Shown: piece by piece, positions 29,819 through 33,613 of the stretch
Position numbering within the stretch: the first letter of the stretch is position 1
How the letters are laid out: each line of letters opens with the position of its first letter
Source: an uncultured Phycisphaeraceae bacterium
GTDB taxonomy: Bacteria > Planctomycetota > Phycisphaerae > Phycisphaerales > UBA1924
Assembly: GCA_964614075.1 (NCBI GenBank)
Contig: CAZTJZ010000003.1
Location: 4,408 to 68,407, forward strand
DNA length: 64,000 bases
Reading direction: 5' to 3'
Translations under genes and position numbers: made by a program
Notes under the pieces: generated by a model
The model's database searches: none
The model's input: the letters and a program-made list of their open reading frames with translations, nothing else
What the model was told of the DNA's origin: nothing

Positions 29819-29950
29819 GGATCGTGCGTCGAGCCCATGGAGCACGATGCCGCGTCAATCGGCGAAGAGTCTTCTGCCGCCCAGGTTGAAGCCGCGGTTC
29901 TGGGAGCCCGACATATGCCGTTTGCAGAGCGCCAAGGCGGCTTTGGAGGA
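29819..29950. repeat. degenerate copy (c0) of the hairpin + tRNA-Pro-3'-end + arm module
   Basis: Hairpin GGATCGTGC..GCACGATGC (29819-29850), then core remnant TCGGCG. The arm TCTGGGAGCCCGACATATGCCGTTTGCAGAGCGCCAAGGCGGCTTTGGAGG is about 75% identical to 31424-31480. Confidence 0.6.
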
Positions 29951-30049
29951 TTGAGGGATACCAGCAAAGCCGACAGGTACTGAAGGCGCGCGTCACGCGA
30001 CGATCCGATTATCAACAATGCGATTCTGAAACCTGCTCGTGAGTACCGG

Positions 30050-31027
30050 CTACCTCTCCCAACCACTTATCGTCTGCCGCCGCTCAAGAAGCTTCCGTCC
30101 AGCTCCGCCGGAATCAGGCGTAAACCAAAGCTGAACCAATACGTCGTGCTTCGAATCCCAGCCTGTGGCGATCTCTTCGACGACCACCTTCGAGTTGGCG
30201 TAGAAGAGTTGTTCTGATTCGTCTGAGTATCCAACGCGCTCACGCGCGTAGAGGTGCGCGTGCGATATCGTAAGGTCTTTCGACTCGTCGCCGGACTTGA
30301 CCCGCAACTCTGTCACGCCTGGCATCCCCGGATTGATCCACGCTTCGATATCCAACTCCTGCTTCGCTGAGTCATCAATGGTGATGGAGGGCGCCCCTTT
30401 GTGCGTGTCAGTAGGCGAGATGGCTGACAGCGGCTTGCCATCCTGAACGGCCTTGCGAACAGCAGCCAACTCAGTCTCTACCTCAACCAAGAGCCCAGGC
30501 GTCTTTGGTAGGTTCCCGACGTCGTCGATTTCGACGGTCGAGAGCCAAAGGTTGGGAACGCCCACGAAGAGATACGCAAGGCGCCGGGACGGGATCGGCC
30601 GATAGGTGCAGATCGCCACTTGAGTGGCGCCGGCATCCGGCGCGACCTGCGTTACGCAGGGCGACATGAACTCCGGTTCCGTTGGCTTCTCCTCGAAAAC
30701 AAGTCCCACTCGTGTCTGCGTCTTGGATCCGATGAAACCGTTCAGTGTGACGCGAGAATCTAACCGCCGATACGCGACGGCGACGTCGCGGCCACCGCGT
30801 CGTTCCATCCCTACGCGCCAGCGCGGAGAAGCCTCGACGTACCGTTTGAGGTCGTCTTTCTTACCATCGCAGAAGTACTTGAATGACGGAAGACTGACGT
30901 CGATCTTCTGCGAGCCGCTGCTGCTGTATGGAGTGGCTGTCGCTTTGGGTGGAGGGGCGTTCTGCGGAGCCTGTCCCGCGGGCTGAATGAGTGCGAACAG
31001 CAGCACTGAATAGCAGAGTGTCAGCAT
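30050..31027 (-). CDS. hypothetical secreted protein (lower-GC islet gene)
   Basis: 325 aa. Signal-like MLTLCYSVLLFALIQPAGQA. GC about 55-58% in sampled lines, with many A/T-ending codons. No family recognised. Confidence 0.6.
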   Translation of the reverse strand: MLTLCYSVLLFALIQPAGQAPQNAPPPKATATPYSSSGSQKIDVSLPSFKYFCDGKKDDLKRYVEASPRWRVGMERRGGRDVAVAYRRLDSRVTLNGFIGSKTQTRVGLVFEEKPTEPEFMSPCVTQVAPDAGATQVAICTYRPIPSRRLAYLFVGVPNLWLSTVEIDDVGNLPKTPGLLVEVETELAAVRKAVQDGKPLSAISPTDTHKGAPSITIDDSAKQELDIEAWINPGMPGVTELRVKSGDESKDLTISHAHLYARERVGYSDESEQLFYANSKVVVEEIATGWDSKHDVLVQLWFTPDSGGAGRKLLERRQTISGWER

Positions 31028-31064
31028 CGAGCTAATTGTATGCGTAGCGCACCCACATCTCGCA

Positions 31065-31262
31065 TCAGGTGTGGATGACGCGTCCCTCGCTCGCCAGCGC
31101 CGCCTCCCACGTCGCCTTATGCATCGTCGGCAGCGCGTGACTTGAGCAGATGATCTCTTCCATGGTCAGTTCCAGACGCCGCGCCAGCGGCAGCCCGCAG
31201 ATCAGCTCGGTCGACTGAGCGCCTCGTGCGGGCACGATCGGCTCGGTAAATCGATTTGACAA
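31065..31262 (-). CDS. small hypothetical ORF (weak DUF433-like C-terminal pattern)
   Basis: 65 aa. ..LTMEEIICSSHALPTMHKATWEAALA loosely resembles the DUF433 tail (s.eEIl..YP.Lt.e.i.aAL.Y). Possibly a decayed gene. Confidence 0.25.
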   Translation of the reverse strand: MSNRFTEPIVPARGAQSTELICGLPLARRLELTMEEIICSSHALPTMHKATWEAALASEGRVIHT

Positions 31263-31335
31263 AGGCGCGAGCGGATCAAATCAGTGACGAACCGCTTGGG
31301 ATGGCAGGACGCAATCGCACTCCGCCGTAAACACC

Positions 31336-31500
31336 GATGGCCCCGGTACCTACCGAGGCCATCTGGTCTTCCAAGTCGGGGTGACAGGACGCCAATAGAA
31401 CTCTTCTTGGAGGGCGTTAGGGTCTGGGAGCCACGGATATGCCGTTTTCTGAGCGGAAACGCGGTATTGGGGGAATGAGCGATCAGCCGCAAAGTCGACA
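31336..31500. repeat. copy c1 of the hairpin + tRNA-Pro-3'-end + arm module (left boundary of ars islet)
   Basis: Hairpin GATGGCCCCGG-TACCTA-CCGAGGCCATC (31336-31363). AAGTCGGGGTGACAGGA (31373-31389) is identical 17/17 to 33537-33553. The arm is CGCCAATAGAACTCTTCTTGGAGGGCGTTAGGGTCTGGGAGCC... Confidence 0.8.
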
Positions 31501-31659: not shown

Positions 31660-32981
31660 CACTTCACCGCCGACACATCAAGGCTCGTGATGTAGTCGCT
31701 CGGCTTGGAGCCGGCGGGGAGGGCTTCCACGATCCGGCGATAGAGCGGGTCTTCCCAGTTCGTCATGGCGTCGATGTATTGCGGCTTGGGCGTGAGCGTG
31801 ACTTCGGACAATCCTGCCGCGTCCGCCATTGTCCGCGTCTCTTCGACGAGCACGGCCCCGGCAATGCATCCCACGAGCGCTTCCACGTCGGCTTTGACCG
31901 ACTCGGGAAGCGGGCGCACGAGCGCCAAGTCCGAAACGGCCACGCGCCCGCCCGGCTTCAACACGCGGGCAATCTCACGCCAGACTCGCGGCTTGTCGGG
32001 CGAGAGGTTCAACACACAGTTGGATATCACCACGTCCACGCTCGCGTCGGCGACGGGGAGCGATTCAATCTCACCCAACCGAAACTCCACGTTGTCCAAG
32101 CCGGTTTGCTTGTGGTACGAAGCCACGTTGCGGCGGGCCTTTGTGAGCATGTCGGGCGTCATGTCCACGCCGATCACGCGGCCCGTCTTCCCCACCTTTG
32201 GCCCGGCCACGAAGCAATCGAAACCCCCGCCCGCGCCCAAGTCGAGCACCACTTCACCGGGACGGAGCGAAGCAATCGCGGTTGGGTTGCCGCACGAGAG
32301 GCCCATGTTCGCACCGTCCGGCACCGCCGACAGTTCGCCACTCGCGTACCCGATTGCTTGGGCGAGTTGATCGGGCGAGAACGCGGTAGCGCCACAGCAC
32401 CCGCCGCCGCTCGGGCCACAGCATCCACTCTGCGCAATCTGCGCGTACCCCGCGCGGACTTGATCCCGCACGGCGTTCGCATCCGGCGCTGCGGGTGGGC
32501 AGCACGAATCATCACAGCATGTACGCTCGGGCATGGCGGAACCTCCGGTAAGGGCTTGGGGCAACGTCTCCACGAATCGCCGAATCTCATCACGCACCCG
32601 GCGGTAGTGCGGCATGGCGTCTTCGTCGGTCTTCGCACCCTTCGCCAACGTGGGCGGATCATCGAAGCCGACGTGGATCACCTTCGCGGGGCCGGGGAAG
32701 TACGGGCACGCTTCGTTCGCGGAATCGCATACCGTCACCACGAAGTCAAAGGCAACGCCCGAGAGAGCATCCACGGTCTTCGACGTGTGGCCGGATATGT
32801 CCACGCCCGCTTCGGCCATCGCTCGAACAGCGAGCCGGTTCATCCCGTGCGGATCGGTCCCGGCGGAGTAGGGCTCGATGGAATCAGAACGGAGCGCCCG
32901 CGCCCAACCCTCCGCCATCTGACTCCGGCACGAGTTGCCGGTACAGAGGAACAACACGCGGCGCTTAGCAGCACTTGCCAT
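31656..32981 (-). CDS. arsM: fusion protein: LMW-PTP-type arsenate reductase (ArsC) + arsenite S-adenosylmethionine methyltransferase (ArsM)
   Basis: 441 aa from ATG 32981. The N-terminal ~140 aa carry LFLCTGNSCRSQMAEG (CX5R P-loop) and DPPT. This is followed, with no stop, by Cys pairs and the ArsM core VLDLGAGGGFD, GVDMTPDML, VISNCVLNL, LVGCIAGA. Confidence 0.9.
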   Translation of the reverse strand: MASAAKRRVLFLCTGNSCRSQMAEGWARALRSDSIEPYSAGTDPHGMNRLAVRAMAEAGVDISGHTSKTVDALSGVAFDFVVTVCDSANEACPYFPGPAKVIHVGFDDPPTLAKGAKTDEDAMPHYRRVRDEIRRFVETLPQALTGGSAMPERTCCDDSCCPPAAPDANAVRDQVRAGYAQIAQSGCCGPSGGGCCGATAFSPDQLAQAIGYASGELSAVPDGANMGLSCGNPTAIASLRPGEVVLDLGAGGGFDCFVAGPKVGKTGRVIGVDMTPDMLTKARRNVASYHKQTGLDNVEFRLGEIESLPVADASVDVVISNCVLNLSPDKPRVWREIARVLKPGGRVAVSDLALVRPLPESVKADVEALVGCIAGAVLVEETRTMADAAGLSEVTLTPKPQYIDAMTNWEDPLYRRIVEALPAGSKPSDYITSLDVSAVKW

Positions 32982-33351
32982 TGCACGCCCCTCCCTTCGC
33001 GGGACAGCACTCATCCAACGCATCCGCGAGGGACCGAATGGAGCGGACGAGTTCGGCGTAGCGGACGCGATAGAACACCGTCCGCCCTTCCTTCGTGGCT
33101 TCCAGCACGCCGGAGCGGGCGAGCAACGCGAGATGCCGGGACACCACGGAGAAGTCCACGGAACAGCACTCGGCAACCTCTCCGACAGAGCACCCACGCC
33201 CGCACTTGGCGATGCACCCGATGAGGGAGACGCGGGTAGGGTCGGACAACGCCTTGAACAGCACGGGGTCTAGCAGCGCGTCGAGAGGCCCACAGCACGC
33301 GGCGGCTTGCTTTGGTGTGGCCGGCGGCCTTCGTTTGCGTATTTGCGTCAT
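32965..33351 (-). CDS. arsR: ArsR/SmtB family metalloregulator
   Basis: 128 aa from ATG 33351. Winged-HTH FKALSDPTRVSLIGCI...VGEVAECCSVDFSVVSRHLALLARSGVL. Extra Cys pairs (AACCGP, DECCPAKGGACNGKCC). 17-nt overlap with the arsC-arsM start. Confidence 0.85.
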   Translation of the reverse strand: MTQIRKRRPPATPKQAAACCGPLDALLDPVLFKALSDPTRVSLIGCIAKCGRGCSVGEVAECCSVDFSVVSRHLALLARSGVLEATKEGRTVFYRVRYAELVRSIRSLADALDECCPAKGGACNGKCC

Positions 33352-33493
33352 GGTGCAAGTATTGGCGACGATGCGTGCGTTGTCAAAGTTCAAACGCGGT
33401 TCAATAATCCTGTCAACCCCGCCCGAAAGCCGCCCATTCGGCAGCGTTACTTGAACAGTCACTTGGATAACGCAAGTGCTGTGTTTTCAACGA

Positions 33494-33526
33494 GAAAGCC
33501 CTTCGACGTGCTCATCGAAGGGCTTC
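33494..33526 (-). terminator. islet-borne terminator hairpin following tRNA-Pro(CGG)
   Basis: On the minus strand, GAAGCCCTTCGA-TGAGCACG-TCGAAGGGCTTTC immediately downstream of the tRNA 3' end, followed by TCTCGTTG. Confidence 0.55.
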
Positions 33527-33539
33527 ACTCTGAACAAAG

Positions 33540-33613
33540 TCGGGGTGACAGGATTTGAACCTGCGACCTTCTCGTCCCGAACGAGACGCGCTACCAAGCT
33601 GCGCTACACCCCG
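33540..33613 (-). tRNA. tRNA-Pro (anticodon CGG)
   Basis: Minus strand CGGGGTG-TA-GCGC-AGCTTGGTA-GCGC-G-TCTCG-TTCGGGA-CGAGA-AGGTC-GCAGG-TTCAAAT-CCTGT-CACCCCG-A is a perfect cloverleaf. Confidence 0.95.

Follow-up and report, generated by a model that had tools for sequence, protein, structure and literature searches.

How did a group of arsenic resistance (ars) genes come to lie between a tRNA gene and a second, detached copy of the 3' end of that gene in an uncultured Phycisphaeraceae bacterium? The DNA considered here, hereafter the window, is a stretch of 64,000 nucleotides (positions 4,408 to 68,407 of contig CAZTJZ010000003.1, assembly GCA_964614075.1) of high-GC (~69%), planctomycete-like composition, in which tRNA-Pro(CGG) was located by ARAGORN and Rfam at 33539-33613 on the minus strand. 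A first-pass annotation had proposed the serial, site-specific accretion of integrase-less elements at this gene. The proposal is supported, every prediction of it that could be tested having held, and we consider it most probable that the segments concerned are cassettes resembling cis-mobilisable elements (CIMEs), belonging to a tRNA-Pro-specific family of integrative elements and integrated repeatedly at tRNA-Pro 3' ends.

The anatomy of the ars cassette is defined by its two ends. The target gene (attB) terminates in an att core formed by its last ~15 nt. As initially noted, the 17-mer AAGTCGGGGTGACAGGA is present in exactly two copies in the window, identical at 17/17 positions, one inside the 3' end of tRNA-Pro(CGG) (33537-33553) and the other as an orphan core at 31373-31389; the chance expectation for matches with up to three mismatches is 0.17. 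This direct repeat bounds the cassette. At its left end, module c1 (31373-31491, plus strand; nhmmer E = 4e-31, model positions 2-117) combines the orphan core with a conserved arm. At its right end, a sequence termed the CGG-type right end (33364-33536), which is the present 3' flank of tRNA-Pro(CGG), carries a terminator hairpin (33494-33526, z = -5.7). The cargo (31656-33351, minus strand) consists of ArsR (32965-33351) and of an open reading frame (ORF) for ArsC, of the low-molecular-weight protein tyrosine phosphatase type, and ArsM (31656-32978), with Pfam matches to HTH_20, LMWPc and Methyltransf_31. A 5' fragment (~55 aa) of a MIP/aquaporin gene (31483-31662, minus strand; PF00230, E = 1.5e-6, profile positions 9-62 of 222) ends where the c1 arm ends.

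With regard to the ars cargo itself, ArsC and ArsM, the latter an S-adenosylmethionine-dependent methyltransferase, lie in a single frame with no intervening stop and, judging from this frame, appear to form a fusion protein; arsR overlaps the start of this ORF by 14 nt. The CGG-type right end opens with the T-loop, T-stem and acceptor sequence of tRNA-Pro, repeated in the sense orientation (AGTTCAAATCCYGTCACC; 33387-33421 in the window), which forms with the core, ~150 nt away, an inverted repeat around the terminator; the inverted T-arm/acceptor-like piece itself spans 33398-33421. The same piece was noticed in the CGG-type right ends of L009, L016, L022, L031, L032, L037 and L047, and it could correspond to an invertible segment or a secondary att site.

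Older material lies to the left of c1. The orphan core is immediately preceded by a right end of a second, GGG type (31255-31372), with a hairpin at 31336-31363 (z = -6.8); it shares a 39-nt match with the flank (54174-54212) of a second tRNA gene of the window, tRNA-Pro(GGG), whose 3' hairpin flank is ~90% identical to the hairpin before the core at 31373, and many loci share this type. Both hairpins reported by the first-pass annotation, before the orphan core and behind the tRNA, are real. The corresponding cassette contains a probable 3' fragment of a MerA-like pyridine-nucleotide disulphide oxidoreductase gene (31065-31262, minus strand; weak match to PF02852, Pyr_redox_dim, E = 0.007, profile positions 69-109 of 110) and an orphan gene of 325 aa with a signal-peptide-like N-terminus (30050-31027, minus strand; no Pfam family). 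This cassette is devoid of its left core: module c0 (29897-29971, plus strand; nhmmer model positions 48-122, E = 2e-12) is an arm without its first ~47 nt. A decayed hairpin, core and arm had been described at this place. The distal arm is genuine (77% identity to the c1 arm over 64 nt); the supposed hairpin and core at 29819-29865 are not, as this segment folds like its shuffled versions (z = -1.3, 20/200) and lies inside the coding remnant of a DUF1398-family gene. The latter (29681-29911, plus strand) encodes residues 15-91 of a DUF1398 protein and matches an intact cassette gene, L002:2892-3317 (PF07166), with 73% identity (BLASTP, E = 1e-39). Since only this part of the gene and arm positions ~48-122 are left, a deletion has joined the remnant of a third, oldest cassette to the truncated arm. 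Three or more cassettes have left remnants at the tRNA-Pro(CGG) locus, as against the two segments originally delimited. On its outer side, the array is bordered by a SWIM zinc-finger gene (28286-29640, minus strand). The ORF call placed its start at a GTG at 29845; a start near 29640 (VKDWSTDKVL...) is probably correct, and the part of the ORF upstream of 29640 overlaps the DUF1398 remnant on the opposite strand.

The islets are compositionally foreign, their GC content of 0.56-0.66 comparing with 0.68-0.73 in the flanks, in agreement with the lower GC first reported, and all ORFs in 29.9-33.6 kb and in 50.6-54.3 kb fail the GC3 filter (GC at third codon positions) set by native genes. Pfam analysis of the islet ORFs of the window detected no integrase, excisionase or other recombinase and no transfer genes, so that the absence of integrase and excisionase noted earlier holds.

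Is the module peculiar to this genome? A profile search recovered 132 copies in 91 Phycisphaerales sequences. Over 94 non-redundant copies, conservation leaves the background level precisely at A[A/G]TCGGGG, where it jumps to 0.9 or more, remains there for 50 nt and then decays; this 50-nt block comprises the tRNA 3' end followed by ACACCAATAGAACTTTTCTTGGAGGGCGTTAGGGT. The arm is invariant over its first 36 nt, and ~12 copies reach ~275 nt, most keeping only the first 50-120 nt. Searching with an arm pattern returned 48 loci in species-representative genomes, the titles of which are almost all Phycisphaerales, Phycisphaeraceae or Planctomycetota, together with 42 metagenome loci; there were no matches (0) among viral contigs, and blastn of the arm against plasmids gave none either. 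Two to four modules are present in each of 24 loci, never on mixed strands within one locus. In all cases with a tRNA in view (25/25), this gene is encoded on the strand opposite to the array, 0.7-5.9 kb to its right, and it is a tRNA-Pro of the GGG (10), CGG (8) or UGG (4) isoacceptor or a Pro-like 'Ala' tRNA (3). All three tRNA-Pro isoacceptors serve as sites, as does the Pro-like tRNA called Ala(CGC) by ARAGORN. The arm and core first seen in the window are thus recurrent, very widely conserved and tied to tRNA-Pro, and do not represent a generic intergenic repeat. The Ala(CGC) tRNA, found in L059, L060 and L085 with a module array attached, has a tRNA-Pro-like 3' half (AAGCCGGGGTGACAGGATTTGAACCTGCGACC) and, on this resemblance, may be a Pro-derived tRNA with altered anticodon. 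Pseudo-tRNA-Pro fragments with a GC-rich T-loop insertion of ~35-40 nt (...CGCCCTCGCTCCGC...) between GGATT and GAACC were also observed, at L001 (~170 nt 3' of tRNA-Pro(GGG)), L032:~3480-3560 and L041:~1490-1560.

Such conservation in a unit of up to ~275 nt that is non-coding, contains several hairpins and ends in a terminator in the tRNA sense could suggest that the arm, instead of serving as a recombination site, encodes a structured non-coding RNA whose 3' end is tRNA-like, or whose guide-like 5' end is complementary to tRNA-Pro. We regard this as highly improbable. Rfam analysis of the window and eight full-length loci returned tRNAs only, and RNAalifold on both strands found 2-4 compensatory pairs among 51-61, with a covariation term near zero. 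In addition, the majority of copies retain only the first 50-120 nt, and the block itself contains the sequence switch discussed below, which an att site would be expected to show. The small reading frame of the arm (MPFSERK...), once thought to be conserved, is not, since its ATG is kept in only 12 of 38 arms (ACG in 24). Arms may also be interrupted. Compared with L005, L012 (~2140-3130) contains ~0.9 kb of extra DNA, including a 207-aa ORF, after the first ~100 nt of the arm, separating the arm start from the rest of the unit and the GmrSD cargo that are contiguous with it in L005; arms can therefore be split by later insertions or rearrangements.

The DNA between modules has the character of small cassettes. 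The 62 inter-module intervals measure 379-5911 bp, with a median unit of ~2 kb that often holds a single gene, in either orientation. The cargo includes P-type metal ATPases, beta-lactamase-fold enzymes, an APH-like kinase, CobW, DNA-alkylation repair proteins, UDG, DJ-1, SDR/ADH, MscS, SulP, sulfatase, TetR/AraC regulators, GmrSD, DUF1801, DUF1398 and DUF6928. Among 60 annotated array-internal proteins there is no recombinase, transposase or relaxase; the grouped Pfam scans of 259 ORFs report only the commonest families and do not by themselves exclude rare integrases. Long ORFs beside full-length arms, considered as candidate recombinases or TnpB/IscB-like proteins, proved to be P-type ATPases, i.e. 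cargo. To the left of each core lies the right end of the previous cassette, which is 130-170 nt long, contains a terminator hairpin and belongs to one of three discrete recurrent types. The same ~170-nt CGG-type end is found behind tRNA-Pro(CGG), tRNA-Pro(GGG) and orphan cores in other species; right-end types do not track the tRNA isoacceptor, and right ends therefore travel with the cassettes. That the ars islet supplies the terminator hairpin of the rebuilt tRNA, as first suggested, is correct, with the amendment that all such right ends are cassette-borne and none is native. Cassettes are shared between different array contexts (L032/L042, 86% identity over 1.85 kb; L006/L009, 77% over 1.1 kb), and in both pairs the homology begins precisely at the core. 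Finally, the contents of orthologous chromosomal tRNA-Pro sites vary between species and include probable empty sites, as had been predicted. Among 49 Phycisphaerales-type tRNA-Pro(CGG) loci, defined by sharing the tRNA-Pro(CGG) sequence of the window, 12 have arm modules and 8 an integrase gene (int) directly downstream, all on the expected strand, and several are probably empty because a plain T-run terminator is followed by no module within 2-7 kb. In ten Clostridia, including Caldicoprobacter, with a tRNA-Pro(CGG) identical over 45 nt to that of Phycisphaerales (L192, L194-L196, L199, L204, L221, L222, L228 and L246), no module or integrase lies downstream.

A hairpin beside the core, small integrase-less cassettes in unidirectional arrays and a fairly constant hairpin-core distance (z down to -6.8) are features that an integron-like or single-strand (HUH / IS200-IS605-like) mechanism recognising this hairpin would also produce. 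Such a mechanism is extremely improbable here: the hairpin sequences are of unrelated types and absent from native-flank junctions, no IntI, HUH or TnpB-like genes were found in the arrays, and a rebuilt tRNA needs a downstream terminator anyway. Inspection of the aligned modules disclosed no R''/R' attC consensus, the asymmetric 50-nt block having neither a GTTRRRY/RYYYAAC pair nor R''-L''/L'-R' symmetry.

The position of the exchange can be read from the tRNA-derived part of the modules. Real tRNAs have GACAG, GACTG, GAGAG, GAAAG, GATAG or GGCGG in this half of the T-stem; nearly all orphan cores have GACAG, the cassette type. The 3'-terminal nucleotides of orphan cores match instead the local tRNA, with TCAGGG at UGG loci and GCCGGGG at Ala-like loci. 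The sequence switch is consequently confined to ~6 bp, around GGGTGA, which is the size of the overlap region of tyrosine recombinases. Each unit consists of the conserved arm, cargo and a right end comprising the last tRNA nucleotides and the terminator hairpin. In the mechanism we propose, strand exchange would take place within these ~6 bp of the acceptor-stem region. The right end of the incoming cassette would rebuild the tRNA, and the old 3' end would be displaced outward and joined to the incoming arm, from which it follows that the newest cassette adjoins the tRNA. Homologous recombination, for instance after transformation, between conserved anchors of 50-275 nt (block) and 75 nt (tRNA) around variable cargo would require no dedicated recombinase and could also explain why orthologous sites differ in content between species. 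This is very unlikely, as it accounts neither for the tandem arrays and the second copy of the tRNA 3' end nor for the sharp switch within 6 bp and the presence of an integrase at the core, and as a single fixed junction point is seen.

The integrase in question had been predicted to lie beside a further copy of the arm, and this is the case in two genomes. In L017/L103, a full-length arm precedes an orphan core, and ~125 nt from this core starts the gene for a tyrosine recombinase of 544 aa (PF00589, 40.3 bits) with the motifs TGARPGEL, HPHQLRH (HxLRH) and LGH...Y; the same arm-core-int arrangement was found in L114 in a later integrase census, and L007 has a 144-aa N-terminal integrase remnant at the same place beside the core. 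The first lead to this protein was one marginal match (E = 0.009) of a P4-like profile built from 10 sequences, which had passed a leave-out control and detected lambda Int at 3e-16. As the profile scores a true integrase so poorly, its negatives do not cover divergent families. Single-sequence phmmer searches with lambda Int, P4 Int, Mu Gin and phiC31 Int gave no match, and they are insensitive, since lambda fails to find P4; a related-locus search from the single L017/L103 integrase returned its source locus only.

The integrase family comprises more than 1,000 homologues, those with a named source being from Phycisphaerae. In 4 of 6 contexts, int lies ~120 nt downstream of an intact tRNA-Pro(CGG), behind a homologous spacer with a palindrome. 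Downstream of int are genes for an HTH_17-like protein, DUF1580, an NrS-1-type primase-polymerase and a ParB-N6-methylase, and L110 has in addition a GpA-type terminase, so that the autonomous relatives look phage-like and not conjugative. In the census of 80 genome loci (L112-L191), int is situated just 3' of a tRNA gene in 58 of the 71 with upstream sequence, the targets being Gly (17), Pro (10), Val (10), Ala (7), Thr (4), Arg (4), Met (3), Asp (2) and His (1). The likely catalyst of cassette integration is this lineage-specific tyrosine integrase. The autonomous elements carry int ~120 nt downstream of tRNA-Pro, followed by the genes for the HTH protein, primase-polymerase and ParB-methylase; the window cassettes (ars, orphan, WapI and others) would be non-autonomous, CIME-like members integrated by an integrase supplied in trans. 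That the L017/L103-type enzyme acts on the cassettes is suggested by its placement at the core, and they are perhaps still movable in trans, several of them having been damaged later by deletions.

Closely related integrases (46-66% identity) are found at no fewer than nine tRNA amino-acid types (at least 9) at a near-constant distance, and in many of the 80 loci the contig breaks right at the tRNA or int. The perfect palindrome GCGCGGTGT(G/C)ACACCGCGC is conserved in the ~125-nt spacer, ~25-35 nt before the int start codon, in L103 (6877-7000), L104, L105, L107 and L109 and in relatives at tRNA-Gly; it is probably an operator for int regulation.

Several observations weigh against integration of these cassettes by a trans-acting integrase. 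Probing all six-frame ORFs of the 64-kb window by phmmer with the L017/L103-family integrase gave no match; the family is absent from the window, to which this search was confined. In the first 91 sources, an intact integrase is located beside one of 132 modules, with one further remnant, an adjacency that is unusually low for simple decay products. In L144, L146, L162, L165 and L172, the 10 kb that follow int contain no arm. The arm is therefore only a putative P arm of the element, so read from the contiguous arm-core-P'-int junctions of L103 and L114. The local variant is present on both sides at UGG and 'Ala-like' loci, which presupposes either that cassettes match the variant or that selection keeps the tRNA functional. 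Furthermore, L003 contains inside its array (1190-7940) a ParB-methylase gene and ~5 following genes without int. This segment follows the gene order of Pro-type integrase elements distal to int (84% nucleotide identity to L112), and its genes run toward the right end, opposite to the orientation that the simple model predicts. The segment was considered as a true int-distal element end and rejected: its homology to L111 stops before the right end, for which reason these genes are tentatively read as cargo remnants. Lastly, the truncated MIP, Pyr_redox and DUF1398 genes and the truncated arms make the current mobility of the window cassettes doubtful.

These observations bear on the possibility that the islets are pure fossils, left by internal deletion of full-length int elements and never mobile as small units, the block being kept through recency. 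The truncated MIP, Pyr_redox_dim and DUF1398 genes abutting arms and right ends, the many truncated arms, the N-terminal integrase remnant of L007 and the element genes within the L003 array would all fit such an origin. We nevertheless hold it to be unlikely. Only one integrase remnant occurs among 132 modules, whereas an integration module is retained by about half of the ssrA islands of Dehalococcoides (16 of 31, with a serine recombinase; PMC3146451). Moreover, three discrete right-end types recur across species and tRNA-Pro isoacceptors, the homology of array-shared cassettes begins exactly at the core, and conservation of the 50-nt block is ~100% between genomes such as the window and L045, in which the flanking housekeeping gene pyrC is only 73% identical. 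Conversely, the near-total dominance of tiny integrase-less cassettes with conserved ends leaves room for an integron-like, trans-mobilised lifestyle, in which dedicated cassettes, far outnumbering the autonomous phage-like elements, would undergo active excision, pass from one species to another and be returned to tRNA-Pro sites by the lineage-specific integrase, acting in trans. We put forward such gene capture tentatively, as a possibility that is on balance doubtful.

Among known systems, the CIME-like cassettes find their place with tandem tDNA islands and CIMEs (PMC5704250, PMC3146451). The Dehalococcoides ssrA islands (PMC3146451) and the streptococcal tandems of CIMEs with integrative conjugative or mobilisable elements (PMC5704250) also form tandem series behind a tRNA-type gene. 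A direct repeat of the 3' end of this gene delimits each island, further conserved sequence adjoins the repeat, and some members have att sites but no integration genes, the newest member adjoining the target. The window cassettes show the corresponding hallmarks of CIMEs, i.e. flanking attL/attR repeats of the target end and no integration or transfer genes. They differ in that 2 of 132 modules have int or its remnant beside them, in their much smaller size (median ~2 kb) with defined recurrent right ends, in the tyrosine nature of the integrase as opposed to a serine recombinase, and in the use of three tRNA-Pro isoacceptors. As in P4-type/Islander tDNA islands (PMC4383910), where int is beside the tRNA, a displaced 3' fragment marks the far end and the tRNA is restored, the window has an intact tRNA and a displaced 3' fragment. 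However, its islets are without an integrase, the island-encoded enzyme being found in relatives only (L103, L104-L111), and this enzyme is very divergent from P4-like ones (E = 0.009 with the P4-like profile).

The autonomous members resemble Prochlorococcus tycheposons, elements of 10-20 kb defined by their own integrase (bioRxiv 10.1101/2020.12.28.424599). Features in common are tRNA targets, tRNA-Pro(UGG) included, a tyrosine integrase, a primase/helicase replication module, niche-adaptive cargo, partial tRNA flanks and stacking by successive integration. The window units are from a different lineage and encode neither an integrase nor a replication module, the latter being present in the autonomous relatives (Prim-Pol/NrS-1 and ParB-MTase). 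Integron cassettes are likewise small, recombinase-less and for the most part limited to a single gene. Each carries a conserved recombination sequence, and they accumulate at one site as unidirectional arrays in which the latest arrival is beside the insertion point. Here, by contrast, no IntI/attI accompanies the window arrays, the insertion point is a tRNA gene and the cargo may face either way. What distinguishes the family from its known kin is the near-total dominance of tiny integrase-less cassettes with highly conserved ends.

The window contains a second array, overlooked by the first-pass annotation, with modules at 52391 and 53027. Its attB is tRNA-Pro(GGG) (54223-54296, minus strand; ARAGORN and Rfam), flanked by the GGG-type right end of cassette B (54100-54222; hairpin 54183-54212, z = -6.1). 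Cassette B has as its left end module c3 (53027-53121, plus strand; nhmmer E = 8e-28), with the core CAATCGGGGTGACAGAA and an arm with 1 mismatch in 32 nt, and as cargo an ORF of 184 aa (53359-53913, plus strand; no Pfam family). Cassette A starts at module c2 (52391-52442, plus strand; nhmmer E = 4e-11), formed by the core ATGTCGGAGTAACAGGA and the first ~50 nt of the arm; its cargo and right end (52474-53025, minus strand) include a gene for a WapI-like immunity protein (52474-52917; PF24716, E = 3.8e-23) and a 'T3' hairpin (~52990-53018, z = -3.6). Both cassettes are delimited by degenerate cores. The foreign region may extend several kb past c2, since no ORF at 46.9-48.4 kb or 49.2-54.3 kb passes the native GC3 filter. 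This tract contains genes for a PEP-CTERM-like protein (50590-51201, minus strand) and a Cys-rich protein of 357 aa (51102-52175, plus strand), and an ORF at 48452-49633 (minus strand) resembles ORFs beside modules or int elements in L006 and L165 (E = 1.5e-18). The genes 5' of the two tRNA-Pro genes of the window are a pseudopilin-like gene and that for dihydroorotase, and neither the P4-like profile nor the L017/L103-family integrase disclosed a recombinase anywhere in the window. The tRNA-Ser(GGA) gene of the window, at 13219, was checked as an empty or remnant site and showed nothing relevant.

Even on a conservative reading, these results account for the origin of the ars and other foreign genes of the window. 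In practical terms, the 50-nt block provides a marker for the flexible genome of Phycisphaerales in metagenomes, and the related integrases with differing tRNA targets (Pro, Gly, Val, Ala, Thr, Arg, Met, Asp and His) could be used to study target specificity. The cargo of interest comprises arsenic and heavy-metal resistance, beta-lactamase-fold enzymes, and immunity and defence genes. If the cassettes are moved in trans, they would represent a second, independently evolved route by which small adaptive genes are assembled into ordered arrays at a fixed place in the chromosome, with a tRNA gene as docking point and a lambda-type tyrosine integrase in the place of IntI.

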